Source of the DNA: Bigelowiella natans CCMP2755
Taxonomy: Eukaryota; Protista; Cercozoa
DNA length: 37,965 nt
Assembly (NCBI GenBank): GCA_000320545.1
Contig: ADNK01000420.1
Span: 1-37,965 of the forward strand
Direction: 5' to 3'
The first letter of the stretch is position 1; the number at the start of each line of letters is the position of its first letter. The notes below the pieces were generated by a model that saw nothing but the letters and a program-made list of their open reading frames with translations, was not told the origin of the DNA and ran no database searches. Made by a program: the position numbers and the translations under genes. Below are positions 13,127 through 37,649 of the stretch, one piece after another.

Positions 13127-13364
13127 CATTTACGTATATCATGTATCTCACCAAAAATGGCAGATGTATTCGCTCATCATCATCTTCTTCATCATCATCA
13201 TCATCATCATCATCCGCCCTCTCGTCGTCATCATCGCAGAGAACATAGAGATAGAGAGAGGTAGCGTCATGAATCATTCGCACATCGTTCTTGAGTTGTC
13301 CGAAACTTACTACCAGAAGCAGAAGAGGAGGAGGAGGAAGGAGAAGTATCAGTTGAAGAAGAAG

Positions 13365-13396
<32 letters not shown>

Positions 13397-13976
13397 GTAG
13401 TTGCAGAGGCATCGCCGTTGTGAGCTTTCTTTTGGAAATTCTCCATATTCTTTGAGATATCCTTCGCTGACAACGATGTGCCGGTGGATGATGCCTCTAC
13501 TGCTGCTGGTGCTGCTGCTGCTGATAGTGTCACTTTCTGTGCTATACCCCCCTCTATTCCTACTGTTGCATCATCAGTCTCCTGTTTCCCCGAAGACACA
13601 TCATCGGTGTGCTCAAAGTTGTCATTGGAAGAAGAAGAAGAAGAAGAAGAAGAAGAAGAAGAAGAAGAAAGCTTCGAGTTCGTCGTCACTTTGTTTTCCG
13701 TGACTGTAGTTGTCTTGCGGGCAGATTCCCCTGCTTTTTGTATTGATACAGCAGACACACGACGCACTCACGCACTCACACAAATATACAATTTGAATAA
13801 ATATCGAATTCGAAACCCATATTATGATTTCATCCATAGCCTGCATTTGATCAACTAGGCTGACAATCTTCCTCCCCCCCCCTCAACGATATACCTCTAT
13901 CACCAGCTCTATCACCCTGATGGATGGGGGTGTTGAAGACAATTCGGAAACAGCAATAACCAACAAACACTCAAGT

Positions 13977-14016
<40 letters not shown>

Positions 14017-15259
14017 CATGTATATTATCATATTGATAGAAAATGATGAAACATCGCTGATATACTACTACAAAAGAAAGGGTTGTCATTGCAAATGTTG
14101 TGATGTTATGTACACACAGTGTTACGAGAGACTTTTGCGGATGATCCACCCTCTGCCTTCCCCTCTTTTTCCATTCCCTTCGCCCCCACGTCCCCATCCT
14201 CGTTTATCTCAGTCTTAGTTTTCTTCTTCCTCGACGTCTCAGGGGGGGGAACGCTCTCTATTCCCTGATACAAATGATGTGGCAAAGCGTGGTTTTTAGC
14301 GAAAATCTCCTCTGCTTTATCTCACTGATCTCGAAACAATCGATGGGAAGCATCTGGAACCCTGCACGGCACGGCGCGCGTAAACCATGCAAGAACCATT
14401 CAGCATTCGCATCCATCTTCAAGTCGAGAGAACACCGACAATTGCTTTCTATACAATCATTCACCATACCGAACAGTCGTCCCGACTGTCACGCATAGAT
14501 TGCATGCCACGATATATGATATATGCACGCACTGAGCAGCAGTACCCCGGACAACTTGAACCCTTCGCCGTACGCCTTTCCGTTTGATAGATCATTCCAG
14601 TACCTAGCAGCAATTATTCCACGTCAGAGATGTTGCTTTTCAGTTGAACGATGTGCCATCGGAACGGAGGAGCTCCTTTACGCAGAAGGATCTAGGTTTG
14701 GATTCGTCATCGCTGAGAATGAGAACTAGACCGCGACGCATTTGCGCTGTGCCGCCGCCGCCGTACCAATGGCCACTTTTTGAGCAACTTGCGGTGTTTT
14801 CAGTGCTGCTGCTACATCTCAGGAGAGATCCTCTAGTTTGGCGTGATTTGGAAGGGGTAGGCCAAAGCATCATATCGAGGAGGAGGAGGAGGAGGAGGAG
14901 GAGGAGGAGGAGGAGGGAGAACAATAATACCCGTGAGTTTGTTTGATGACATCTGCTGCCTTGGAAGGTGGCTCGAGTTCTGTTGTTAATGCAGGAGAGT
15001 AGTCAAGAACCACAACACCATCAGTATTGTGTAGCACGGAAGTCAAAGATCTACTTGCATGCATGTGTGTGCATGTGTGCATGTGTGCGTGTGTTTGTGT
15101 GTGTTTTCAGGAGGTCGGTGTTGATCCCAGAGGCACTGCTGCTCGCACTACGAAATAGAAAGTTGCCGAAGAATGTATTAGGATATTATTTGTCCAGGAC
15201 TACAACTACTTACGTTTCTTCTCCAACTCATTCCTTTTCTTCCCCTCTGGAATCTGAAA

Positions 15260-15303
<44 letters not shown>

Positions 15304-15630
15304 ACATACGATATAGCAATTATCCAAGAAATTCTTCCATACAGAGAATACCATTGCCTCTGGAAGATTGCTTCGCTGGAGGATAATCATCATCATCGAT
15401 GCGTTTTCGAAATTCAATGTTCAGGACAATGCATCGGTTTTTTAGTACTAGTTTGTTCATTATCATCATCATCATCATCATCATTATTATCGGTTGCAGC
15501 AGAAGCAGCAATAGTAAAGGCAATTGTTCGTAGAACTTTGTAATTTATGAGCCAATCCATGAGTTTCGCTATGAGCCCCGGTCGGTGTTTTTCGAGGCTG
15601 TTTTAGTAGTAGCAGGAACAGATCAGTCAA

Positions 15631-15682
<52 letters not shown>

Positions 15683-16092
15683 GAACAAGTGATGACATAT
15701 CTCCCTCCTCCTACTCCACCTCCTCCTACTCCACCTCCTCCTCCTCCTCCTCATCCAACCTGTTCGCATCGTGGATGTTCTCCGCATCAGGAGCAGTCTT
15801 ATCGATGGCCACCAGCTTGTAGTCAAGCTGTGTGCCGCGACATATTTAGTTAGTTAGTGTGTATGTGTGAGTGTGTGTGTGTGTGTGTGTGTGTCTGCCT
15901 TGGGGGGAGGTGGAGGGGGAGGGGGAAGGGGGGGCATACTCAAAATTCGTATTGTTCTATTTGAAGAGTGATACGCAACGAAAACGATACAAACACTTGA
16001 TGATGTTGTTGCTGTTCTTGAACAAATTATCGAGGTGTATTATCAACGCATATCATCCACATGATTACCATTTCCACCACGCCACCGACGTT

Positions 16093-16124
<32 letters not shown>

Positions 16125-16554
16125 TATCTTCACCATTACCTCTCCTTGATCTATCACAGAAATCATTCCTATTATCTTCACTGCCACTACAGCACCCGTA
16201 CCGAGGACATGCCCTCTATTTACCCACAATCGCGGAGAACAACAAATAGAGTTATCGGAATCGAGAAAAACAACGAGAAGAAACAGAATATGGCAGACTC
16301 CGTTCCCTCTCTCTTTACAATCGATGTTTTCAACGCTTAAACATCAGATTTTTTTGACGCAGCTCACAAAGAATCGCTATTATATAGTAGTAGTACCCAA
16401 TCTCCAATACGTCGAGGGGATCTCCATCTCCAAAGCGACCCTTATCGTCTTGTAGGTCATCTGCCTCCCATGTTTGAGGCAAGAAACCATAGTTGAAAAA
16501 GGGAATGCCGTACCTGTGCGTGGAAATGATGTAAGTGAAAGGGAAAGGAACATT

Positions 16555-16610
<56 letters not shown>

Positions 16611-16672
16611 AGACATCGACTATTCGTGGTCATTTGCAACCGATAATCGAATGGTTCTGTGAGCGACGGCGG

Positions 16673-16703
<31 letters not shown>

Positions 16704-16981
16704 AATGACGATGACGATGACGATAATGCTAGTGGTGGAGGTGATAGCTATGGAAGAAGTGAGTTAAACGTACAGGTAATTCCTGGGGAGATTGTGCTTC
16801 TGATCATGAGCAATCGGGTTGAATGCCTGTGATTATTGTTGCTGCTGATGATGATGATGATGATGCATAGGAGGAGGAGAAGAGAGGAAAACATCGGTCG
16901 TATCCATCAAATGGCCGACATTGCAAAACATATTATCTGTATATATAATTCCTCCGTTGTTGGAGAAGGAAAAGAGCAATG

Positions 16982-17022
<41 letters not shown>

Positions 17023-17598
17023 GAGAATAATACTATACCAAATCCACGTGCTACATTTAGTATGTATATATATAGGCTGAATATATTGTTTTCACGTACG
17101 ATTTTCTTCTGCATCTCAAGCTTATCCGTACGGCCCATCGGTATCTTTGCACCAAGTAACGACAACAACAACAACAACAACAACAATTACAAACACTCTC
17201 AAATGAAATAGAATAAAGAGGGGGGGGGGCAGGGGGAAACAAGAAAAACATGAATGGTCGGTTGGTTACGATTAGTTGCAGGAATGGGTACTTTGTTGAT
17301 TATGGCCTCTTTCTTCTTCTTCTTCTTCTTCTTCTTCTTCTTCTTCTTTTATCACTACTACTACTACTACTACTACCACCATTACCACCAGATGTTAAAT
17401 TGTCCTCAAACAGCAAGCAACACACCTCTACCAACATATTGCACGAAATGATAGTGCCGCCATCTTCTTCGGAGCCTGCTCCTCCACTGCTGCCTCGTCT
17501 CTCTTCTTTGAGGTTGAGAGGAATATCGTGCCATGGGGATATCTTGTTACCGCTGATGATAAAGTCATTCGTTAATCAAGGGGCAAGGACAGATATAT

Positions 17599-17640
<42 letters not shown>

Positions 17641-18530
17641 AAGTATACGAATGCAAAAGATGACAGGTTTTTACAATAATGCTCATAATATCTTCTGTAT
17701 ATTTAATTTCAAAAAAACCGGAGGAGTAGCAGCAGCTTCCTTTTCATGTATTGCAATAGTACTACTGGTACTTGCATTTCTTCTTCGTCTTCCTCTTCTT
17801 CTTCTTCTTCCTCTTTTCCTCCTTCTTCTTTCTTATTCAATACCTTCGGTCGTTGAAATGTAACATCCAATCTGTTGTTGTTCAGTGTGATGACGTCCAA
17901 GGTAATGCAATCAAATAGTCAGTACTGCTGATGGTGACGATTGTGTACTACGAAAACGATTATGATAACGATGACACTGGCACGTTCAGTTTTTCCAATA
18001 AATTTCGAAATGATAAATTCAGTAACCGAAGATCTAAATCTATATGCTTCTTGCACCAAACATCTGATCTACTCATCAACTAATCACTTGCATCCATAAA
18101 AAGTGAGGAATGATGGAAAGACGATGCACTTCATTATCCTCCTCCTCCTCCTCCTTCTTCTTCTTTCACTCATCATAGTTGTTGTGCATTCTCTATTTGG
18201 TCAGTGTCAGCATGGCATCATAAAGCAAGTGATGATATAACAATCGTACTATGTTCATAAATAACCATACCCAGCTTGCCGAACGTGCCACTTTCCTCTA
18301 TATTGCTCGTAGCAGCAGCTAGCTTGGGAGCCCCGAGCATGCGGGAGAATGGTACCCATTCTGGTAAGTTCTGAGCAAGAAAGCAAACTATCAATACGAG
18401 GAAGAAGAAGAAGACAAAGGAGTAGTGGTAGTAGTTGATTTAAATTCAGTACGAATGCATACTTAATATAATGAGCTACAGGATATTTAAATAAATGTAC
18501 ATGGATTCTATACATATAATACATGTGCAC

Positions 18531-18574
<44 letters not shown>

Positions 18575-20040
18575 AACCGGATTCTGATAATACGCTATCA
18601 TGATGTTCCAGCCTTCCTCAACCATAAAACTGCAGCATTGCATGTATGTGGCGGATGTTGGGAGGAGGAGGAGGAGGAGGAGGAGGAGGAGGAGGAGGAG
18701 GAGGAGGAAACGACAACACATAAGTACAACAACAAAAACAATAATAATATTATTATTATTAATGATAATAATAATAATGATAACGAGACTAATTACTGTT
18801 GATTCTTTCTTGCCTGTGACATTACCATCAATACTCCATCTACCACTATTTATCACCTCCGAAATTATCTTCAACCATCATCGTCATCATCATCATCACC
18901 TTCGCATCATTATCCTCTTTAACTAGCGGCAGCTATTTTTTTTTTTCTTCTTCTTCTTCTTCTTCTTATTATTATTATCATCATCATTACTATCCCAATC
19001 ATCGTTGCTGCATTGATTCTCACCCAGATGGGACGCATGAAAGCGTATCCTCCCAATCATTCGGAATTCCTCCAACACACTCCTGAGAATAGAGAATCGA
19101 TAATCGTGATCAACAAACCGCACAAAGAGCACACAAAAGCAGCACTGGCAATAACTGTTAAGTCCAACCTTCACCCCCTTCCGAGCCATCGCTCGCATTT
19201 TTGAGCCGGATATTGACAAGAAATCCTTCAAATACAAAACAAACACACACACACACACACACGCGTGTACATATATTAGTAAACATTTTACAATGCGTTT
19301 TGTAGGCAGGTTGTACGATGTGCATTGGAAAAACAAATGCAAAGAGCAGAACGGATGATGCATCATCCACGAGCAGTACCTTTTTCCGTGAAGAGTCTCT
19401 CTTCTTCATTTTCATATCTTTCGTATCATAATACACCTGCGGTGAAGAATCAAAGGCTCATGTTCATCCGCACATGCTTGTGATAAGGCACATCATCGAC
19501 CGACAGGGCTGGTGACATCGGCAGCAGCAACAATGTAATAATATCGAGGACACCTTGCCAAAGGACAGAATTTGCATGTCACCCATGCCAGGACTTGTTT
19601 GCAGCACGTATCTAAGAAGAAGAAGAAGAAGAAGAAGAAAAGAGGAGATAACACCAAAAACAAAGTAAGGAAGAGTAAGATGATTCCAGAAGAAGAAAAA
19701 AGATGAAAAGGAGATAAAAGGGAGGAGAAACCCTGCATTCAAGATCAGAATCGGATTTAAGTAAGAGCCCCCCCCCCCCCCCCCCCTTCCCTTTTCATCA
19801 CCCGATCGGGGCCTGGTCATATAAATTTGGGTGCCCCAAAACCAACTCTACAGGATAACACAAGCGAGCTATGATTCTAGTTGACGTGTCTGTCATCTGA
19901 CGTTGCTCCAGCATTCCTCCTCGACTTGGCATGCCACTGTACTTCTGTGGGACCTGCATACATCATCGGCGAAGGCCATATTGCCAGCACCGTTGAGGCC
20001 GGTAGCATCCCCTTTTCTATCACCTAACGATACCCGGTAG

Positions 20041-20090
<50 letters not shown>

Positions 20091-20286
20091 GGTTTGATAC
20101 AGTGACTCTACTACTTTTACTACTACTGCTACTACCTGCACATGTTGTTTAATTCTCACATCCAAGGGCACATCGTCAGCCTTGCTCCAACCCCCCAAGG
20201 GTGATAGCCATAGCGTTGGTTTTCGGAATCCTTGCTTCTTTAGCCGATTTCCGGCCTCTTGCATCAAGTGGGCATGTCTGAATATG

Positions 20287-20318
<32 letters not shown>

Positions 20319-20339
20319 GGGGGGGGGGGGGGGGGATGC

Positions 20340-20374
<35 letters not shown>

Positions 20375-21526
20375 TGTTGTTGTTGTTGTAGCAGTATTAG
20401 TAGCAGTATATTCGTAAGAACGTGCCTGTATGCTCGGCAGATACTAAAAACACATTTTAGAAAATGAAGTTAGGCTGTAAGTACCCCGCATGAGTAGGAT
20501 TTCGAGTTTGGAATGCATATACAGCATCAGCGTTTCGTTGTTTGAATTTGCCTCGTAGCTCTTCCGGCGTGAGACGATATTTATCAAGCCCATCGTCATA
20601 CCTATTAGCAGTAGTAGTAGTAAGTAGTAGTAGTAAGTAGTAGTAGAAGTAGTAGTAGTAAGTAGTAGTAGTAGTGTGGTAGTAGTAATAGCACGTTACA
20701 TCCAAGAACAATTTAAAATAAAACAGTGATTTTCGAAACCAATCCGAAAGCACCGACGAGACTCCCAAGAGTAAACTATCGTCACGTTTTGATTTGTAGC
20801 TTAGTAGCCGTAGTATTTTGAGTAACATCCCGCCTCTCCCACCCTGACCTTATTCGTTCGAGCAGCTCGATTTCTCCTCCAAGAAGCCAATTGCCAGCAT
20901 GCACCCACTTCTGCATGTATCTGTCAAAGAGGAGGAAAAAGAAGAAGAAGGGAGAAGGGGGGTACAATGTCAAAGTTGGATGCACACGAAGCGTAGGCCA
21001 TCGAAGTTGTAGTATCACGATGATGATATACCGACAAGCATGATAATGATGATGATGATGATGATAATGATTACGATTCTTACTGTTATTGTTATTGTTA
21101 ATGTTAATGTTATTGTTATTACGGATGATTCTTGTCCCATCCCCCGAACACACGCGCAATCATTTCGTCCTTTCGAAATCTAATGAATCAATAAATCCTT
21201 TGTGTCACCGAGGGCATTGGGGGAAATGTGTGTGTGTGTGTGGTGCTTTTGTTGATGATAATGATCATGGAGTGATATGATGTGTCTATTCGAAATAACA
21301 CAAAGGAATTAAGAATATCGTTTCTCTCGTTTGTATATGTTGAAATACTCGTAGATTTCAGGATCTGTAAGTACAGCGATGACCTTTCCTGATAATTGGC
21401 CAATGATCGATGACACATAATAACAATAATAACATCGTGAAAGGTGAATTGCCCTGCTACTCTATATCACCATCGTCTTCGTCGTCATCATCATCATGAT
21501 TATTTTCAACAAAAGAGAAAGGCACA

Positions 21527-21563
<37 letters not shown>

Positions 21564-23122
21564 GTCGGCGCGACAAGGGCGATTTTCTTCTCCTTCGATT
21601 TGATTATTGCATCTTTTGTGTTGTCATTGATTGGGAGAACGATAGGAATCGGCATGTTCACTCGCAGTCCCATTTGCAGCTCAGTAGAGTAGTCATCAAA
21701 ATTGGTCTGTTGAAGAAAGAGAAGAAGAAGAAGAAGAAGAAGAAGAAGAAGAAGAAGATGATGATGAAAAGGAAATATAAATATCAGAAAACAAGGAAGA
21801 ATGAAATGCCTCCTAGCACATTCCAAGGGGAGAACATCCCACAGTACTGAGCACACTGAAATGTTTGTTTTCTATGAATTTCACGCGAGGTAGCCATTGC
21901 TCCCTACTCAGCCGTTGTTCCACAGCATTGCATATGCTAGTAACAATGGATTAACCACCACCATCATCATATTTCTAAAGTCTCCAGATCCTCTACACCG
22001 CACCTGCGTGGTGAGGGCGTTCTTATTGCCCGTCAAGTCGTTTGGATCTAATAGCAGAGAGTTGAAATGCAGAGTCTGTAACAAGGCCCCCTCGCGCATA
22101 AACCCTGTCAGCGGGGACGCCCACCCCTCACCTTATCACCACATCAAGAGAAAGGAGAGAGAGAAGACAGAGAAGACCAGAAAGACAAAAGGCGAGGACG
22201 AGAGCAGAACCAACATTGTATTTGTATTAGAGATGTAACGAATGAACTTGATTGGCATCGTATCTGAAAAGAAGACCCCCACTTGCAATCTACAGGAGAC
22301 CACAACTTACGGAATACACCGATGTATCTCGCTTCTACAACAAGCAGGACAGTTTGCCGTGCCGACGAGGCGCTTAACGTCGGTGTGTAGGGAACTATCA
22401 TTCGTCGTCTCCTTGCTACATGTGCACGATGAGCAAATCTCCATATTTTCAAAGATAGAGGTCAAGAAGAAGAGGTACTGCTAATACGGCTCGTTCTGAC
22501 ACCACAGCGCGTACTCAAAAGACTACACTAGCAGATACAATGCTACTACCGATGCACTGAACCCAGTTGACATCCACATTCGTAAGCAGCACTTTGGGGA
22601 ACTTCGCAGCTGCGGCTCGTGAGTAGGTTGAAAACTGCGGGGTTTTCCAGTTGAAGCCGCCGTCTGGAGGGCTCTGCAGCGGATACCACGATGGGACCTT
22701 TGCACGCCGCGGAACAACACGACAATATGACGATATCAAGCAACAATGACAAAGTCGTCATAAGAGGATGCTGGTAGTGGTGATATGGTTGCAGGTTACG
22801 GTGTATTTTTTGTCTCAAGACATCAGCAATCACAGGGTGGGGAGAGACTGCCAACGGTGCCAAATCATCCCCATCAGGACTTTTGGAACTACACGGTTCT
22901 ACTGCATGATACAGTGCCCATATGTTGTTGTTGTGAGAAGTTGCTTACGTTATAACCAACAGATACCCCACGGCTGAGAAGCGCCTGGTTACATGCAAAA
23001 GCATCACAGAAAGCCGCAACTTTATCATCGCCATTATCATCATCTATCATGATCATCGTCGTCATATCAACGGCTCTGGTGCTAGTCTTTAACTGCCCCG
23101 CAGGGTATGTTTGTGTGTTTGC

Positions 23123-23161
<39 letters not shown>

Positions 23162-23299
23162 GGTGATTACAAAGATGGTGGTGGTGGTGATGATGATAAT
23201 ACATAAAGGACGTCATCATGATCATCATATATTCCAAACCTTTCCTATCTGTATTGCAGCCTGCTCTGCTGCCTTATCATCCTACAACAGTGGTGGTGA

Positions 23300-23337
<38 letters not shown>

Positions 23338-23674
23338 CTATATCAGTGGTAGTAGCAGTAGAAGCAGTAGTAGTGGTAGTAGCAGCCGTGTTGTCTTATT
23401 TATATAATTTAACGTTCATCTGTGACACATCCTCCTCCTCCGCCGCCTCCCCCAAGATCCACGGGTTAGTTAGTGTCGACGGGATTATTGGGCATAACCT
23501 TGGCAGTGAGCATGATTGATATTTCTGGATGTGTTGGGGATTCGTATGGCTCTATCTCACCGCTACCAGTGTTTCCGATGATACCGAGTGATGACGACGA
23601 CGATGGTGATGATGATGATGATGGTACAGGACCCAAATCTACTTGAACCTTAAAAAATTAATAGAAACAGTGCG

Positions 23675-23712
<38 letters not shown>

Positions 23713-23841
23713 GAGGATGTGGCGTTATCCGTACTATACACACGGCTTGCTTGTCGCCATCGTACCTACCTCGAGAAAAGGAAGGCCTCTAACGTTGTGC
23801 GACCTGCCAAAATCCAAGCCAAGATTATTCGTTAAAAAGAG

Positions 23842-23876
<35 letters not shown>

Positions 23877-26038
23877 AGCACTCGGGCGATACGATACACA
23901 GTCGAGAGGCATTGCAATGTTGAGAAGTGTGGGAATAACACGCAGTATATTCTATCAGAACAAACAGGATCATCAACTCCCAATCTGACATGAAGAATTC
24001 ACATCTATCTCGTGCAACAACTCTGCTGCTGCTGCTATATACTGATTACCTTCGAATCCAATCCCTTGCAGCTTGCTTTGGGATGTTGAGGTTGGCGAGT
24101 ACAACTGTACCCGCATCAGTTAATACTGCGCAAAGCTCACCAGCTAAAGGAACCAAAAAACAACGAAACCGTCAAGGACTTGCGGGGGATTCATTCTGAG
24201 CATCAGGAATGAAGCGCGAACAACACCGATGACTTCTGGTACATCATTTGCCATGCTCGCGCGACGATAAATAGCCACCAAAAACAGGGAACGATGAGGA
24301 AGCCAAATAGCATATTATGGGAGGAAGGATAAGGAAAGGGGTGGAGGAATGAGTATTAGTGGTAGTAGCAGCAGCAGCAGTAATAGTAGTAGTATTAGGA
24401 GGCAGGGGCACAGTTGTAAGCACAACCTCTCCTCGTCTTCTCATTGATGGTTGATGGCGAAGATCCCAAATCAGAGTTGATGCCCTGTGATAGTAGAGAG
24501 TGCTCCAGGCGGTAGACGTTCAACCGATGCTTGCTCAGAATCCATTCCTCCAGCGCTAAAGTAATAAACAAATGTAGAAGAAGAAGAAGAAGAAGAAGAA
24601 GAGGACAGTGCCAGAAGGGTTTGACAAGATCATAGACATAAGCTAGTAATAGAAATATATACAGGGTGATACATATGATTTATGTTTGAATTATAAATTA
24701 CCTAACCCAACTTTATGCGCGAAGGCTTCATCGGAGGATACTATCATCACGGTAATGCCTGATACAACATTTGTAACCATTTTCACGTGGAAAATAGAAG
24801 AAGCGAAATGTCCAATCTATTGTCCTTCTTCGCGGCAAAATCTCGGCCATATCCTGTTACTCTCTCAGCGAGTCAAGGATGTGAGGAATTTCATATCACT
24901 ATTACGATTACTCAAGGTAATCACTTTATTCGTAACAAAACGGTGAAAATGACTAAAAATATTTTCTTAAATATCATAGAAGTATCGATGATTTTGGTGA
25001 ATGGAATCGTCATCATCGTTGTTCTCCACTCCTCGTTGCGGGAAAAGAACTAAATACTTGAACATCTTACTCAGTCATTCACCTTTCTGGGCTATGTACG
25101 CAAATCTTTTTTCACGTGACACACCGTCGTTGTGCCCGATTGCCACCTGCTCCACAAAGACGTGATGATGACGAAAACACAATAGTGACGTCATCATAAT
25201 CACACGGTGCTAATGCACGTAAGATTGTCGCAAGAGGGGAGAAAGCAGAGTAGCACGGTGCAAAGGGAGTGGGATCAATGATAAAGGGAAAGAGGATGAG
25301 CTCGAAAAGAGAATCTGCTTCTTTTGCCAGTCATACCGGTGTTGGCAGCGGTCGTTCCTGATTCTCCTTTGCGAATTCGTACAGGTAGTTTTCCGCTTTA
25401 TGAATACTATTACTGATAGCGTTTCTTAGGCTGTGCGCATCGAAGGACCCGATTCGGCTAACAACTGAGTGATCGGTTAAAGTCACTCCCCCACCCGTCC
25501 CACCGGTATCACTGCTTTCCGTCTTTGTCGTAGATGTGCGCACAAGCGGGGAGGGGGAGGAGGAGGAGGGCGCGTCGCCATCGCTGTTGGAATTGTCATC
25601 GCCATGGAGAGCATGGTTTTGTGATTTGTGGGTGGTGATGGATGATATAGCATCGAAGAGACCAGTACTCTTGCCTCCTACTCCTTCTCCTCCCTGAGCA
25701 TCATCTTCTTTCTTCGCAGTGAAGAGGAGGTAGCACAACACCCCGCATATGGCAAGTGCCAGGAGTAGCTTTGTAAGAAAAGAGAAGCCTAAAGATTGAG
25801 AGCAAGGGAAGGGGGGGAGGGAATTCTCATTGGAAGCAGTAAGACGCCTAATTCTCAAAAATACCTGATCTTCTCGCTTTGCCCCCATGAGATTTAGCCT
25901 TAGCGGGAAGAAGAGGGAGGAGGAGGGGGGAGCTTAGATTTGTAGCCACGGGAATAGTGAGAAGTATATAATACGTACCTCGCCCTCTTCCATCGAGCGC
26001 AGACTGGCAACATCGACAGATCTGAGAAAGAGACTCAT
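12402..26038 (-). CDS. Signal-anchored fusion: degenerate APS kinase + ATP sulfurylase + inorganic pyrophosphatase + acidic/Ser-rich tail (43 exons, ~1384 aa)
   Basis: 43 GT-AG exons with mutually consistent phases sum to 4155 nt (ATG 26038, stop TAG 12404-12402). ATPS motifs: [68 protein letters not shown]. PPase motifs: [60 protein letters not shown]. The APSK-like region aligns with PAPS synthase kinase domains. Tail exons (14264-12402) are less certain than the catalytic ones. Confidence 0.9.
13311..13730 (-). repeat. Coding (TCT)n microsatellites giving poly-Ser tracts in the C-terminal tail exon
   Basis: (GAA)n at ~13354-13393 and ~13628-13669 on + strand lie inside the 420-nt exon 13730-13311. 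Confidence 0.7.
14546..17871 (-). other. Family I soluble inorganic pyrophosphatase domain (eukaryotic type)
   Basis: The conserved active-site positions are present: E..K.E in [13 protein letters not shown] in PRNY, YG, DxDPxD, D....D.K, YK. Confidence 0.95.
18271..22697 (-). other. ATP sulfurylase domain (PAPSS/plant-type lineage)
   Basis: QTRN and HAGH catalytic motifs lie in exons 20601-20485 and 20277-20136. The exon expected to carry the GRD motif is not recognisable in 19612-19901. Confidence 0.95.
19768..19786. repeat. 19-nt poly-C run within the unresolved ATPS interval
   Basis: Read directly; a similar 18-nt poly-G run is at 20318-20335. Confidence 0.9.
22949..25146 (-). other. 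Degenerate (pseudo) APS kinase domain, exons 4-11
   Basis: [140 protein letters not shown]...[12 protein letters not shown]. It is colinear with APSK but lacks the P-loop, DGD and lid motifs. Confidence 0.85.
25715..25768 (-). other. Signal anchor / signal peptide h-region (residues 39-56) of the fusion protein
   Basis: [18 protein letters not shown] is preceded by basic GKARRS..TK and followed by acidic [11 protein letters not shown]. Exons 26038-25979, 25898-25865 and 25788-25337 join in phase. Confidence 0.8.
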
Positions 26039-26765
26039 TGTGAATTGTTTGCCATCAAGTGTAGCATTCCCGCGATGGACGTCAATACTTGTTTTTCGGG
26101 GGACTAGAAAGGCTTCATTGGTTTGGAGTAATTACTCTCTCTCTCTACCACCTCTTCTTCTGCGAGGCTCTCTGCATTGAATGGCCTGGAGCAGCTCCAA
26201 GGAGCGTGTTTCTTCACTGCTGGGTTTTGAGGCCTACAGGCAGGCGACGGGGTCGATCGAGCAGCAGCAGCCACTGAAATGGAAACCGGCGGTCACTTTC
26301 GAAGAGAATACGTTTTACGTCTATTTTTTGTGCGGAATATATCTAAGATATCACTGACCAACCTCACTTGTGTGATGATCAAAACAGTAGCGCGGAAGAG
26401 CGACGGGAGGCTGTGGATCAGTGACCAACTTCTTCTCGAGCAGGACACTGATAAAAAATGAACAGGCGATTTTTGTCATATATGGTGTTGGTTTTCGTAT
26501 GACGACAATAAAATTTCGTGTCGTCATATAAATTAGAACGGAGTTCGCATTCTTCGTACACCACATCCAATCCGCGGGAAATGGCGGAGAGCAGCCGCGG
26601 TGAGCCTGATCTTGAATCAATCCCTAGGCTTTTCAAATCTTGCATGCTTTCGCCCCTCGTCGCGTTCCCATGTCATTTTTGTGCCTCCTGGCCTAGGCAA
26701 CGTGGGACAGATTTCAGTATCAACATCCACCTAGAAATCAATCTCAACGGCATCCTAACAAAAAA
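26039..26765. promoter_or_regulatory. Divergent promoter region between the ATPS fusion gene and NUP85
   Basis: Head-to-head ATGs at 26038 (-) and 26766 (+), 727 bp apart. Confidence 0.6.
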
Positions 26766-29217
26766 ATGTCTGCAATTGTTATGGTATCAGTAGACCAAAA
26801 GGAGGAGTTGGAGGAGGGGCAAATAAATGACCAAAGGAGAGATCCCGAAATTTTCAAAACAAGCGCTCCCTTACACGCAACTTGGGGCTATGGAAACGAG
26901 ATTTTGTTGCATGGTAAGATACAGGACCGCAGCAATTCGAGAAGAAGGAAGGCGCGCGGAAACGGCAGCATATATCCCAGAAAACTAGAACGTGAGGTTG
27001 GTCAGAGTTGTAAAGTTGAAGGACTTCGGCCACTTCTCCTCGGATGGCACAGCATATTTTCAGACACCCAGAAAAGTCGTAGGCATGCAGACCAAAAGAA
27101 AATGGGCTTGAATAGCATCGCTGAGAGCAGTAGAAATTATCGTTCTGAACTTCAGAGCTTCATCGAGAAACGTTGCAGATTAGATAATAGGCCGGGTGGT
27201 GACGAAGAAAAGGCTCAAATAATCTTGGCGAATATACACATAATATGGCATCTCATCGAAATTTTCTATCTCGATGTGCATAGCAACGTCACTGGCCAAA
27301 TGCTGGGCTGGTTGCATCAGTCATCACCTGAGCAAGATGACGACTTTGATGGTGATATGAAAGAAGGCGACGCTAACTGGTGGCGGCGGGTCGGAGAAAA
27401 GGTTCTTCAAGGGAGAATACCAGCTGCAGTTGACATGCTGATGAATTATGCAGCTTTAGAGAGCATGATGGAAGAGAGGGACGAGCTCATTCAGCTCTTA
27501 GAGAGTAACCCGTGTATGGTAGGTGATAATAGAGACACTGCCGATTTCATCGAGGATTATAATGCATGGAAAAAGGCTGTTGAATCATGGATGAGGAAGC
27601 AGGCCGAACACCTAGATGGCGGGATCTTAGAAAAGATGGTGGACATCGCTGAAATCCTTCTTGGAGACCCGCATACCCTTTACTCTTACTCTACAAACGA
27701 TCACGAATTCTTCGTCGCTCACTTATTATATCAAACGCCGGAAATTGGGCGTGATGACTTACAGGTGGTGGCCAGCAACTGCTATTCTGTGGAGTACAAG
27801 CGGACATACGGGGAGGAGGGAAACCAGGAAGAGCAGGGGCTGCTACAGAAATGCATCATCGAGATCATCCGAGGAAACCTGTACGACGCAATAATGATTT
27901 GCTTGCAGATCTTTGACTCGCCATGGTTCATCGCCCACCTCGTAGATTTATTGCATCATGCAGGCTGCTTAAGGGAGACGCTTCCATTCGATGATGATAA
28001 GAGCATCAGGCAGTTTTGCCTCTTGGAGTATGGCAGGGGACTGATCAGCGATCCTTCTATTTGGCACCTGAGCCTTGCATACTTCTCCGAGTGTGGGGTA
28101 AGAGGCCGCGCACACGTGAGAGGGCTGCTAGAGTCCCAGCCGATCCCGTCCATTCGTGTGGCGAATAAGCTCATGAACCTCTGTCGCAAGTACAAGATCC
28201 CCCAGGATCTCATGACCATTATCATCAACCGTATGGGGTTCAGGGCAATGAAGCAAGGGAGGTTGGGAGAGGCGATTATGTGGTTCGCCAGGTCAGAGGA
28301 GGAGGAGCTACTATTGAGGCTTGCAACTCGCTCAGCCGTGCAGATGTTAAGGAGGAGGGAGGCCGGAGATGAGGGTCTTTATAATTCTCCAATATCGATT
28401 GCCATGCCGTCTGATGAGAAAAGCCCTGTTGGATCTGCTGTCGTGCTCGTGGAGACCGTGCGCGATTTCAGTAAACTCCGAGCTTCGATTGAAACACTGG
28501 TGGAAACATTGCTGCAGAAGGAAGCTAAGGACAAGATTCAGATGGGCAACAAGAACAATTCCCAACCTAGGAGTGATAGTGAGCAGAGAGGTGCAATCGT
28601 TAAGAAACTTGCAAAATTACAGGCAGAGGCTATATCTTCTACGTTGAAGCTACTCAAAAAGGGGGTTGGCAGCAATGAATGCCAACTTCTAATTCTATTC
28701 GAGTGTGCGCGCATCGTTGACTATGGGAAGTTCCATAACATAAGCATTGTATCTTCTCCAAAGGATATCATGACTCTCATGTCGCACCTGGAAGGGCTCT
28801 CCTCAAAGCCTAATGTGAATGCCAAAAACGGCAAATGTGAAGATGATAAGGTCGTTGGATCATCATCAATCTGACCTAGTGTTTTACCTTGCATCGTTGA
28901 TTCCTCCTTACTTCATTCAGCAGTCATACTTCACCCTTACAATCTGATCGTTGGTTCCTCTGTATCTTAGAAATTTGCGGCCATGAGAATGGCCTTATCC
29001 AAAGGAGTTGCCAGGGCTGTTGTTCTGGACGCGAAGAGGCGCAGAAACGAGCCCGGTGGAGAGGAGAATCATCAGGTAAGGCGCAAACTGGCTGCCGCCA
29101 AAATGTTCGTTTTCCCGAAATCAAAGTAACCTCTCATGACTCTTGTCTTTTCTACAGCCACGAAGAATCATCATGGCACCAGACTTGCAAAAGTTTGCAA
29201 ATTTAGATCGGATATGA
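26766..29217 (+). CDS. NUP85: Nucleoporin Nup85 (Y-complex); exons 26766-28850, 28971-29075, 29158-29217
   Basis: Family-typical motifs IIWHLIEIFYL, NWWRRVGEKVLQGRIPAAVDML, EILLGD, FFVAHLLYQTP, PWFIAHLVDLLHHAG, RQFCLLEYGRGLISDPSIWHLSLAYFSECG. The spliced exon 2 supplies the terminal MRMALSKGVARA helix. Confidence 0.9.
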
Positions 29218-31759: not shown

Positions 31760-33143
31760 ATGTCAAATAAGCGCGAGAGATATGTCGTTCGGCTACTGAT
31801 GCTGGGGGACTCTGGTGCCGGCAAGTCGACGTTGTTGCTGCGGTATGTTCAGGTATGGTTCATCAGGCCCATTGCTATCGTTATTTTCCTGTGTAGAATT
31901 ATTTATCATGCATTCTTTCACAAACAGGATGGGTTTGAGAGCGAACACATGCCCACAATTGGCATAGATTTTCGGCTTAAAAATATCGAATTGGACGGAA
32001 AGAAGATCAAAGTGCAGGTGTGGGACACAGCCGGGCAGGAACGCTTCCGGTAAAGCTTTGCTACAAGTCAAAAGAACTATTCTGGATGATCTTATGTACT
32101 CATGTGTTGATACCGGCACTTTGTTCGTGCTGTATGTATTTATCTAGAGATAACCAATCTAAAATCAAATCATTTACATATGTTCTTCCCTGGGCTCCTC
32201 CATTCTCTGCAAAATGACTCTCCTGTCACATAGAACCATCACACACAGTAAGTAAAATGAGTAAAGAAATCGCCCCACTTTTATTTGCATTTAGTTGAAA
32301 TATTGAATAATTGTTACGTGGTGTTCTAATTGTTCTTCAGACTACTACAGAGGGGCACATGGAATACTGCTACTTTATGACGTGACAAAGCAGCCAACAT
32401 TTCTCAGTAAGCACACAACAACTTCACAAATCTCTCAATACTCAATTGCTTTGATACTGCTACGCACTCATTCACTCACCAATAACTCCATCCAACACTT
32501 CGCTGAGAGAGTATTACCGTCGGCATTCCATTGATGCGTATGAGTGACCTCGCCAGAAGTGGTTGAATTAGTTGCAAAATCATTGATCCTCAGATATTCG
32601 AAAATGGATCCAAGATGTCAGAGCATACGCGGAGCAGAACGTAATATAACCGGAAGAATACAATACTGCCAATGATTATATGGGAGGGAATAGAATATGC
32701 TCGTAACATTCTCAAGGATTTATGATGATAATTATTGTGTCGCGAGCACTCGCCCATTGGCATTGTTACAGGACAAAATTATCAGTATTTTCGTTTTCCT
32801 TGAGGAGTGCAGGATCAAGATTCTACACTTATATTTCACCATTCTGTACACATTGCAACGATGAGGAAGAAGTTATGGACGGCCATGACAAAACTCGTTG
32901 GCGTTCAGTAGACTGTTATGTTACATGATACAAAACGACGATTTAAATCGTCTCTTTGTTGGGAGAATATCTAATGTTGTTGTCTTTCAACCTTAGGTCA
33001 ATCTTGTGCTGATAGGGAACAAGTGTGACTTAATTCAGAAGAAGGTTGTAATTGTAGCAGTGGTAGTAATATTGGCCTCAAAGCCCGACCTTCTCTATAT
33101 TAGTTATATAAATAATATATAAATGATGTATAAATAATATATG

Positions 33144-33195
<52 letters not shown>

Positions 33196-33251
33196 TAAAG
33201 GCATGTATTATTATGTAAAAATTTTATATTAAATTCTATATTTAATATATA

Positions 33252-33299
<48 letters not shown>

Positions 33300-33315
33300 A
33301 TATTATTTAGACATA

Positions 33316-33354
<39 letters not shown>

Positions 33355-33955
33355 AAAGGTTGTATCCACGGAGCAAGCTGAGGAGTTAGCAAACGAGTAA
33401 ATTCTCCTTATCATCTATCATCATAATAATGTCGAAAGAGTGGGCAAAAAATCCACACAGCTCAATCTAAAACTCATTTTGTTCTCTCGATGTTTGGTGT
33501 TGTGTAAATCCCCTTTAGATACGGGATCCAATTCTTTGAAACCTCGGCTAAGGTCTTTCGAGTGAAGATGACTCATAAAATAACTCATAGAGAATACTAC
33601 CACCAACGATTGATAATCTACTTTGGGAGTGATTGATTCCTACCCTCTCCCTCCACCACTTTCAACCTAAAAAACCACCATGCAGCGCTGATTCTGCTCG
33701 ATATCGATTCTCAGGAAGACACGAATGTGACGAAGGCATTTGATTCTCTCATTAAGACTATATGCAATCGAAAGTTTAAAGGTAGTTACGATATTTCGGA
33801 AGAGGATACGCTTGGAATAGCACCAAAAACGACAAAACTGAATTACGTTTGTGTTCTCCACTTGTTTTGTAGACAAGGCTATGTTGGAGTCAAAAAATGG
33901 CGGAAGCGCACCCCTCTCGAAACCACGGGGCATGAAGGAAAAAAAGTGTTGCTGA
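31760..33955 (+). CDS. RAB8: Rab8/RabE/Sec4-like small GTPase, 10 exons
   Basis: [55 protein letters not shown] and C-terminal KKCC prenylation motif (stop 33953-33955). Includes a 14-nt microexon at 32234-32247. Assignment within the Rab1/Rab8 group rests on TIGIDF. Confidence 0.88.
33095..33350. repeat. AT-rich (TA)n and (GT)n intron tract in RAB8 intron 6
   Basis: Direct tandem repeats between donor ~33045 and acceptor ~33358. Confidence 0.9.
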
Positions 33956-34379
33956 AAAATACGGCAGTTTTTCAGCTTCTCTGATTGCCACTTACGTCCT
34001 TACACTATGATTGCGTCGGATGCGGAGAATTGTTTCATATCCAAGCGCGATTGCATATGTTCTGTGCGTGCTGTGGTCCCAAACAAATATCAGCGTGCAA
34101 ATTATTCTCATTTGCTCTTCTGAATTAACAAGAGCTAATTCCGATACCTTGTGGTTATGTTATTCATCTGCAACAATAAATTTACACACACATGCTGTTA
34201 CGGGCTAGAGCACCCCGCGGTGTCAAGTGATGCAGTGTATACGCATTGCAAATTATTGCAGCTTTCAATAATTACAGAGAAAACAACGACCGCTGACACT
34301 TTCTGATCGACGTTATGATTATTGGGCGGACTGCCGTTAGTAAGGCTAAATAAATGGCTACATGGACGTACATCTACAG

Positions 34380-35165: not shown

Positions 35166-36212
35166 TTATGAGCTCGTTCTCACATTTCCAGGCCGTGCAG
35201 CTGCATGGTTCACTCTACCTCCACCTGCCCCTCTGCCATTGGCTTCCTGTTGAGCAGCTGCTTGCATCTTCTTTAGTTCCTCAGGGTCTAGAAAATATAA
35301 GGGTTTGCGTGATTATACAGACGATATAGTGCAGGAAGTGTGATGTTTTGAGGAAGAATAACAAAAATAACATATATCATACCAATAAATCTTGTGAGCA
35401 GCATCACCAACATCATAGCCCCCATCATCAACGCCATTGGGTTTTTGAGTAAGTTCAAAGGATTGAAGGCCTTATGCACCTGTACAATGTTGATAAATTA
35501 TATTAGCACAAACGTATGGTTTGCGAGAATTTGAGAGACAAAATGAATAGTACCTCAAAATACTGAGTTTTCCCTATTGGTCGAAGGCTAAGCGGATATT
35601 GGATACGTTCTTTCCTCTTCATGGGATCTGCAGTCATTGCGCGCACCTAATTGTCAGTCCCAATTTACTGAGAATGTTACTTAACCGTTGCATGATTTTA
35701 TTCTTCCCAAATTACTCCAACTTACTACCTTTCCTTTGTCACGACCGCTTATATCTACTCGCACCTGGATAAATTCCAATCAGAACACATCACCCGCATA
35801 ATCTTTACGGAAATTACTACCGGCGAAAACTCATAGTCCGTGCTTTGAATCTCCATGTAATATGTCCCAGGGCTAAGACCGGAACTGCATGGCAATTCAA
35901 ACATTTGTTACGTGTGTCATTTCAGCAGGATGGGTACAAGTTTTATTGCTTATCTGTCAATTTACATGATGAATTTTCCATTTGACTGGGGGATTCCCAC
36001 GTATTTTCCGCCATTCAGCGTGAGACGCACGTTGTTGGGCTTCGAATTCCCTGAAATAAAGTCACATTTGATGACGACTGCGGCACTTGGCAATCAATCT
36101 TGAATGAAGAATTACTTGGAAGTAGAATTGTTCCTTTTATCGAATACACATCAGCATTCGGCGAGGCCGTCCAGGAGAGCAGCGCCAGAGTTAAAAGGCT
36201 GCCCAGAACCAT
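35166..36212 (-). CDS. EMC7: ER membrane protein complex subunit 7, 7 exons
   Basis: Signal peptide MVLGSLLTLALLSWTA; beta-sandwich VRLTLNGGKYVGIPQSNGKFIISGLSPGTYYMEIQSTDYEFSPVRVDIS; YPLSLRPIGKTQYFEVHKAFNPLNLLKNPMALMMGAMMLVMLL...DPEELKKMQ; stop TAA 35168-35166. Confidence 0.93.
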
Positions 36213-36442
36213 TTGTATGTATGATGTTCTAAACGAAGAAGAGGGGGAGAGGAGCTGGGAGAGAGTCTGGCCGCCGACAACACTCGCAACAACTTTACAA
36301 CAACTCCGTACTGATCCCGTCGTCATTTTGCAAAAGGCCTGCATTCATGACCTACGATTTGGAAAATACCGGTAAAATCATCAAAAAACACCAGTACTAC
36401 AACAACAACTCCAAGCGCTTTACCTATCTGGCAGCCGTCGGA
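36213..36442. promoter_or_regulatory. Short bidirectional promoter between EMC7 and the NAD(P)-binding gene
   Basis: Head-to-head ATGs at 36212 (-) and 36443 (+), 230 bp apart. Confidence 0.55.
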
Positions 36443-37649
36443 ATGAGGTCGTTGCATCGTCGCTCGACTCCCCATCGTCGAGCCCGGGTAGGCACGTGTG
36501 TCTCCCTGACCGCAGTTGGAATTATCGTGTGGTTTGCATCCTTGCAACCCCTCACCGAGCCTGTACAATCCTCTGTTTCGAGCTCTCTCACGCGAGTAAA
36601 CGGTGTCAGCCCCTCCCTGGCTCCTCTGCACAGGTTGACCTGGAACGAGAGATGAAGTCCAAATTGCGTATTACAGACATGTGTGAAAATATGTACGGCA
36701 GATTCAGACGAGTTGGTCCTCTTTCTCCTTCCACTATAGTCGTCGTACATGCTCTCTCCGATGACGTGCAGAAGCAGGTACGATGATGCCCCGTAGACAC
36801 TTCAAAGCTACGCTCGAGAAAATCGTATTTTCCGAATTAACCCCCCCCCCCCCCCTCCAACCCCCTGAAAATCATAAAGATGCGTGGCTTGTCCAAAGGA
36901 AAGAAACGAAAAGGGAGGAAAGCAGGAAAACGTTCTTCGGCTGACTCGCAAGAAGGAGAAAAGGAGATGTCTTCGGCGGAGAAAGAAGCCTCTTCCTCGA
37001 CTACGAGTCTCGCACCCGACGAAAAAATAGTAAAACTAGAAACTTCTGCACAAGGTGTAATGAATGTCATCTAATTTGGTGAAACACGAACAGCTGGCGA
37101 TACTCTCTCAAGTAGCACATACATTACACCACGAAGTATTTTGCTGACAGTCTTATGACACCGATGATGCTTTTTGTCTGCTATGGCACTGTCGCAGGAT
37201 ATGTTTTGTTGATGACTTCGCTTTAGTTTTTGAACCCAATAGTTTTAGACTGTATTCTAATTGTTTGTGTGTCTTTATTACCTCGCCGCTCTGTAGAACC
37301 TTCTCTCAAAGAGAGTGCGAAGAATGATGAAATTGTTCAGGCAATAAGCGGTAAACAGTTACATAGCTTGATTAGGCTAATTCGCAACATTAAATATAAA
37401 TATGATATATTTTCAATCTTTCTCGATTAAAATCTCTGGGTACATGACGACGTGAATGCGTCAATCAGATCCTGTTTCTCCTCCTCCTGTTGTGACGGTC
37501 ATCGGAGCCACTGGAGGAGTTGGTAAAGAATGTGTTAGGTAATATACGTCGTTGTTCACTCCTTTAACACTACACGTCTAACCGTTTATCAAGTGATATG
37601 TTGTCTATTTTACCTTGTGGCAAGGCTAATGGCCTTCATATAAGAGAGG

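Follow-up and report, generated by a model that had tools for sequence, protein, structure and literature searches.

A kinase-dead sulfate-activating triple fusion of Bigelowiella natans with a predicted type II signal anchor

We analysed a stretch of 37,965 nucleotides from Bigelowiella natans CCMP2755 (assembly GCA_000320545.1, contig ADNK01000420.1, positions 1 to 37,965, hereafter the window), in which a minus-strand gene encodes a triple fusion of an adenosine 5'-phosphosulfate (APS) kinase-like domain, an ATP sulfurylase, and a pyrophosphatase, with a leader in its 5' coding exons. The predicted architecture of the protein is that of a type II Golgi enzyme, with a single N-terminal helix, a disordered stem, and a positively charged N-terminal flank. 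We consider it probable that the leader is an uncleaved type II anchor of a lumenal enzyme, most likely in the Golgi, which would feed APS to a kinase-active sister paralogue. Judged from its motifs and its place in the tree, the window copy is the chlorarachniophyte dead-kinase paralogue of the fusion, newly recognised here. The original prediction, made from the sequence alone, held up on the leader but overlooked exon 1, the loss of the kinase motifs, and the division into paralogues.

Results

Start codon and gene structure

Splice joints over positions 23700-26800 were read from contigs of three runs, X1, X2, and X12 (two studies; the RNA status of these runs is an automatic guess), and a fourth run of raw RNA reads contributed one read over the same interval. 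The contigs of X1, X2, and X12, three of the four runs, contain the GT-AG joints at 25978-25899, 25864-25789, and 25336-25147, in agreement with the introns predicted originally. They also skip an extra intron of 130 nt (26151-26022, minus strand, GT..AG) that contains the ATG at 26038, and this ATG, which had been proposed as the start codon, is ruled out as intronic. Exon 1 (26152-26279, minus strand; contig pieces, with the joint 26021/26152 in X1, X2, and X12) extends to at least 26279 and comprises the 5' untranslated region, the sole ATG at 26177 with an in-frame stop upstream of it, and the first nine codons. These nine codons replace the first six of the earlier model and give an N-terminal tail of 41 aa in place of the 38 aa first proposed. 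Methionines are found at residues 1, 19, and 211, and because there is none between residues 19 and 211, a start beyond the helix would leave the kinase-like domain truncated. Translation from downstream of the helix, the case that the original prediction had set against itself, is ruled out in this way.

The gene model has 39 exons, with GT-AG at every junction and a frame that is open apart from one missing segment, and places kinase-like, PUA, sulfurylase, and pyrophosphatase domains in this order in one frame. Its joints are supported by contigs down to 23770, and the remainder is modelled by homology. In run X12, an upstream acceptor at 24235-24144 (minus strand) lengthens exon 8 by 92 nt and brings in a stop after 298 residues; the product could be an anchored fragment or a decay substrate. 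A search with a conserved exon gave as best matches P0001, an MMETSP protein (89%), and P0002 of Amorphochlora amoebiformis (85%), and in the matched proteins Pfam recognises domains of APS kinase, PUA, ATP sulfurylase, and pyrophosphatase. Metagenome contigs contained no exact match in a 32-nt search, and a search for related loci returned 80 loci with best-segment identities of 33-60%.

A basic tail, a hydrophobic helix, and an acidic stem

The 41-aa tail (25769-26177, minus strand) is coded over 26177-26152, 26021-25979, 25898-25865, and the start of 25788-25337. It carries a net charge of +5 and is predicted to be cytosolic. A Lys stands immediately before the hydrophobic helix of 18 residues (residues 42-59; 25768-25715, minus strand; best 19-residue Kyte-Doolittle mean 2.33), Lys-Lys follows it, and the flank charges are +3 before and -2 after. 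From hydropathy, flank charge, and the AlphaFold model of P0002, the helix is predicted to be an uncleaved signal anchor. The stem (residues 60-185; 25337-25714, minus strand) is Ser/Thr/Gly-rich and acidic, with a net charge of -5 over its first 50 residues and -6 over residues 60-190, and it ends in a short helix-like block that is conserved across the window protein, P0001, and P0002. An 18-aa helix behind a basic tail end and an acidic Gly/Ser/Thr-rich stretch after it had both been described before, and both are retained in the corrected model. The AlphaFold model of P0002 (mean predicted local distance difference test score, pLDDT, 79.5) shows a single helix at residues 42-58, a low-confidence stem (pLDDT <50 over residues 58-155), and confident catalytic domains that match the folds of human PAPSS1 and pyrophosphatase.

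The first 23 residues of the window protein are identical to those of P0002 at 22 of 23 positions, exceeding the identities of the kinase-like (35%), sulfurylase (78%), and pyrophosphatase (40%) domains. That the n-region outranks every domain in conservation would be surprising in a signal peptide destined for removal, and it suits a retained cytosolic tail. This bears on an alternative that we regard as fairly unlikely, in which the catalytic domains face the lumen all the same and the enzyme is not a Golgi resident, either because the helix is cleaved or because the tail sorts the protein to the cell surface, to the endoplasmic reticulum (ER), or to an organelle of vacuolar or lysosomal type. 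In P0001 and P0002 the helix is followed by small residues that would permit a cleavage site, as judged by eye, and the strong conservation of the tail speaks against a discarded peptide.

A chlorarachniophyte paralogue with a dead kinase domain

The APS-kinase-like domain is coded by exons 5-12 (22949-25146, minus strand; contig joints to 23770, then homology, with motif alignment and Pfam). The P-loop, LDGD, ISP, and RDPKG lid motifs are lost in the window protein, P0001, P0002, and P0008, and they are intact in the 11 other aligned sequences. Among 132 triple fusions, the P-loop is missing only in these four and in one truncated model, and the Pfam APS_kinase score is 37 bits in P0002 versus 216 in the active paralogue P0051. 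Judged by these motifs, the window gene does not encode a functional synthase of 3'-phosphoadenosine 5'-phosphosulfate (PAPS); because the P-loop is lost, the window enzyme would make APS, not PAPS.

In a tree of the sulfurylase domain (37 rows, P0008 left out), the window protein, P0001, and P0002 form a clade (support 99/94) that is sister to seven kinase-active sequences of chlorarachniophyte type (100/100), with a joint node supported at 100/99. The kinase-active paralogue (B. natans Bigna1 51478 and 36346, Lotharella globosa, Partenskyella; P0047-P0054) shares with the window protein a basic tail with a helix and 65-68% sulfurylase identity. It differs in its intact P-loop, a different conserved tail, a shorter and basic stem, and the lack of a long C-tail. 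P0008 was first grouped with the window paralogue by its dead kinase domain; a simpler tree of 35 rows placed it outside both paralogues, as sister to the dead-kinase and active clades (84). A search among shorter homologues found no close dead-kinase relative in the best 120 of 1794, where the top identity was 60%.

The leader across the triple-fusion family

The family set comprises 132 triple fusions including the window model, from which 28 sequences were dropped as 5'-short or without Met, and one as lacking the kinase region. A leader was scored as hydrophobic when the protein had a Met start, at least 75 aa before the kinase domain, and a 19-residue Kyte-Doolittle mean of at least 1.6. 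By this criterion a leader helix is found in 94 of the 103 complete fusions, a count that measures conservation among related sequences and not independent events. Most of the nine failing leaders begin within the helix, and 2.2% of 539 control chunks of 150 aa from the catalytic parts reach a mean of 1.6.

Oomycetes and diplonemids have no plastid. All 17 complete named oomycete models pass the criterion, as do two of three named diplonemid homologues (the third reaches 1.37), and the architecture is not limited to plastid-bearing lineages. Because the leader is present in these plastid-less groups, its origin cannot lie in plastid or periplastid targeting. Two deep-branching kinase-sulfurylase proteins, P0024 and P0027, have the Cys insert described below and remnants of a hydrophobic leader.

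The family distribution is central to the second option of the original prediction, a periplastid-targeting signal. The paralogue could have been retargeted after duplication: the helix would act as signal peptide, and the acidic stem would play the part of a transit-like peptide leading into the periplastid compartment or plastid. There, an enzyme that makes APS alone could supply APS reductase or the cytosol of the endosymbiont. According to Hirakawa and colleagues, acidic transit-like peptides, and a charged C-tail, reportedly serve for the periplastid compartment. Periplastid-targeted chlorarachniophyte proteins are described, in excerpts of two papers, as carrying a cleavable signal peptide followed by a transit-like peptide (PMC4641359, PMC6105332). 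Retargeting would fit the loss of the kinase, as a switch from PAPS to APS, the net acidic stems of the dead-kinase paralogue (-6, -3, and -3, versus +1 to +5 over the first 50 post-helix residues of active paralogues), and the window model's 0 N-glycosylation sequons (N-x-S/T) versus 6.2 expected. The leader, however, predates the plastids of the lineages concerned, and the first 23 residues of the tail are conserved. The acidity of the stem is marked in the window species alone and weakly conserved, with a net charge over the first 50 post-helix residues of -5 versus -1 and -1 in the two orthologues. The charge of the C-tail also varies (-39, +9, and -4, with 0 over as much of the window tail as was modelled), and the sequon depletion is seen in the active paralogue too but not in P0001 or P0002. 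All four dead-kinase sequences keep a Cys pair that suits an oxidising lumen, and a table in PMC2275785 already assigns B. natans an ATP sulfurylase of the plastid. With leader homologues in plastid-less lineages, a conserved n-region, and acidity in one species, the periplastid option is weakened, and we judge retargeting quite unlikely.

Stroma-targeted chlorarachniophyte proteins have a basic, Ser/Arg-rich transit-like peptide. A gene at 36443-36777 (plus strand), which runs off the window and whose second exon we infer, has the look of such a stroma-type bipartite signal: behind a basic n-region of 15 residues come a hydrophobic stretch and then a segment rich in Ser and Arg with a net charge of +1 to +2. 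The contrast drawn originally between this gene and the fusion is borne out, and a stroma-type peptide is absent from the fusion's leader, with -5 after the helix.

Orientation of the catalytic domains

One exon of the sulfurylase region (19024-19082, minus strand) holds a family-specific insert bracketed by two Cys residues, which are predicted to form a disulfide. The Cys pair brackets the insert in 186 of 187 QTRNP-type sequences versus 0 of 88 plant- or animal-type enzymes, and both Cys are invariant in an alignment of 106 rows and retained in the window protein, P0001, P0002, and P0008. The lone exception, P0226 (461 aa), is a stand-alone ATP sulfurylase with a basic tail and a helix, and it lacks the Cys insert as well as the kinase and pyrophosphatase domains. 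At one sulfurylase site, 84 of 85 Asn-bearing sequences form N-x-S/T. Sequon density over the fusions (0.94 of expectation) lends no support to a lumenal location, with plant enzymes higher at 1.55.

The flank charges and the family-specific Cys pair favour lumen-facing catalytic domains. In line with the original prediction, the catalytic domains would then lie outside the host cytosol, and of its two options the Golgi-style type II anchor is the one to which the leader points. An anchor with the catalytic domains on the cytosolic face of the ER or Golgi, beside a PAPS transporter, would need no lumenal supply of ATP or sulfate, would agree with the label 'cytosolic' in the excerpted text of PMC4220642, and would sit well with the mild flank-charge bias of the family. 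For this a 41-aa tail of net +5 would have to cross the membrane against flanks of +3 and -2, and neither the invariance of the two Cys nor the conservation of the N-x-T site would have an explanation. We give this arrangement very little credence.

Observations that weigh against a lumenal Golgi enzyme

Several observations count against the favoured explanation of an anchored lumenal enzyme of the Golgi. Across the family, the flank-charge bias is mild (median -1; at or below 0 in 71% of 84). Chlorarachniophytes carry Asp at the conserved sequon site, so that this site may be a structural Asx turn. The only glycosite reported for a Phaeodactylum fusion, N721 (PMC8678454), lies in N-S-D, a non-sequon, with one spectrum and was rejected as evidence; a text search of the same table gave no peptide for the conserved sequon site, and text searches of the supplements of PMC7864949 and PMC9826595 gave no match.

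Other points concern the compartment. A motif Y-x-x-hydrophobic near the start resembles adaptor sorting signals and is also used in endosomal and vacuolar sorting. Such a motif occurs in 65 of 84 family tails, which speaks for the favoured reading of a cytosolic sorting tail and would also suit a lumen other than the Golgi; it is missing from the tail of the window protein. The Paradiplonema homologue DIPPA_32343, in the table of PMC12697944, is labelled 'unknown', not ER/Golgi, with glycosome membrane-enriched as its top class (score 0.35), which could again suit a non-Golgi location; DeepTMHMM gives it no transmembrane helix and DeepLoc places it in the ER/Golgi. For the Golgi speak a sulfotransferase in the same table, classed as ER/Golgi, and the PAPS-using sulfotransferases of mammals, which are mostly Golgi enzymes according to part of PMC4659905.

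A further point concerns the sulfurylase itself (PUA-like and catalytic domain; 18271-22697, minus strand; homology model). Its motifs QTRNP, HAGH (HxxH), and ISGS are intact, but the segment of about 29 codons that codes GRDPAG, present in the three other dead-kinase sequences, is absent or garbled. The interval expected to hold it (19612-19901, minus strand) has no clean exon, and a search of the whole window turned up none either, with a best local score of 36 of 168. A garbled look-alike is present at about 19830-19750 (minus strand) over a run of 19 G; it is the best of 37 introns, and 1-3 of 100 shuffles reach its score. Because this look-alike lies exactly at the expected place over the 19-G run, the gap is probably a sequence error. 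Both flanking junctions are phase 2, so skipping the exon keeps the frame. Wherever the protein resides, the sulfurylase of the window species could thus also be dead, its GRDPAG exon decayed and spliced out without a frameshift, so that the protein would amount to an anchored pyrophosphatase on a scaffold. The missing exon and the junction phases fit this reading, but the rest of the domain is 78% identical to P0002 with its motifs kept and no long branch, and the look-alike is what base-calling errors would give. We think a dead sulfurylase unlikely.

The family I inorganic pyrophosphatase domain (14546-17552, minus strand; by homology, with Pfam PF00719 at E 3.6e-08 on one exon) has intact catalytic residues in the window model. 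They are largely intact in P0008 and degraded in P0001 and P0002, where the sulfurylase alone is left intact. A low-complexity, charged C-terminal tail follows (13267-14264, minus strand), consisting of the exon 14264-14133 and a probable last exon within the open reading frame (ORF) 13767-13267, with boundaries that are unsure.

Neighbouring genes

Head-to-head with the fusion gene lies a long ORF at 26697-28874 (plus strand) with a Nup85 nucleoporin domain (Pfam E 6e-76). Contig ends at 26279 (minus strand) and 26585 (plus strand) leave about 305 bp between the two, possibly a bidirectional promoter. A multi-exon gene at 31762-33985 (plus strand) encodes a Rab-family GTPase, Rab8/RabE-like by eye (Pfam Ras E 2.8e-19 on its first ORF). 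The spliced gene at 35288-36344 (minus strand) has a signal-peptide-like start and a Met-rich hydrophobic segment, with no Pfam match on two exons; presumably it resembles EMC7. ORF pieces at 7712-11016 (plus strand) hold, by eye, a two-helix membrane segment, a coiled coil, and PDZ-like repeats, with no Pfam match on the exons tried.

Discussion

Golgi type II enzymes consist of a cytosolic tail, a single helix, a stem, and a catalytic domain. The window protein has the same layout as Golgi glycosyl- and sulfotransferases. Those enzymes are transferases, whereas the cargo here is a nucleotide-sulfate-activating enzyme whose placement in the Golgi is predicted.

The triple fusion is also reportedly described by Bradley et al. 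in 2009. It is already known from diatoms, oomycetes, and haptophytes, as described in parts of two papers (Patron et al., 2008, PMC2275785; Prioretti et al., 2014, PMC4220642), and the window protein resembles these fusions in domain order, QTRNP-type sulfurylase, Cys-bracketed insert, and N-terminal leader, with 58-61% sulfurylase identity to three stramenopile copies. It differs from them in its lost kinase motifs, and the leader is read here as a family-wide signal anchor. In an excerpt of Patron et al., the leader of the T. pseudonana protein is a signal plus transit peptide for the plastid, and the other copies are listed as cytosolic (PMC2275785). Passages of Prioretti et al. call the fusion cytosolic, state that its leader could not be classified, and ask for a re-examination of the T. 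pseudonana leader (PMC4220642). Our literature search, in which subscription journals were mostly outside coverage, found no paper that places the triple fusion in the Golgi or reads its leader as a signal anchor, and none that describes a dead-kinase paralogue.

Other sulfate-activating enzymes share parts of this design. Animal PAPS synthases (PAPSS1/2; PDB 1xnj, 1x6v) have the same kinase-sulfurylase order and fold, but they lack the anchor, the pyrophosphatase, and the Cys insert and, in the source passages, are cytosolic or nuclear. The ATP sulfurylases of yeast (Met3) and Penicillium chrysogenum likewise keep an inactive kinase domain, to which sections of PMC4220642 and PMC3734648 assign a structural or PAPS-sensing role. 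In these fungal enzymes, unlike in the window protein, the domain is C-terminal, the enzyme is soluble, and the sulfurylase belongs to another lineage, which makes the loss of kinase activity independent.

In the mechanism that we propose, the tail would stay in the cytosol and carry sorting information, and the helix would hold the enzyme inside the secretory pathway with its catalytic domains in the lumen. There, lumenal ATP and sulfate would be turned into APS by the sulfurylase, an unfavourable reaction that the fused pyrophosphatase would pull where cytosolic pyrophosphatases are out of reach. The kinase-active paralogue would then phosphorylate APS to PAPS for lumenal sulfotransferases, possibly in a mixed dimer of both paralogues formed through the kinase-like domain. 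As in fungal ATP sulfurylase, the dead kinase domain may have been kept for structure or regulation.

For the wider family, we regard as an even call the proposal that stramenopiles, chlorarachniophytes, and diplonemids make activated sulfate in the Golgi lumen by an anchored, disulfide-stabilised fusion, whereas animals and plants import PAPS. The pyrophosphatase would be fused because the lumen has none, and chlorarachniophytes would have divided the work between an active copy and a pseudo-kinase copy, the window gene, which would add to the APS supply or regulate the active copy. The dead-kinase paralogue would then exemplify subfunctionalisation, with flanking domains whose decay differs from species to species. 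If true, a family-wide signal anchor with lumenal catalysis would resolve both the cytosolic label and the puzzling plastid 'reversal' of T. pseudonana. It would also explain the fusion to a pyrophosphatase and would put the PAPS supply for the sulfated polysaccharides of diatoms and their relatives inside the Golgi.

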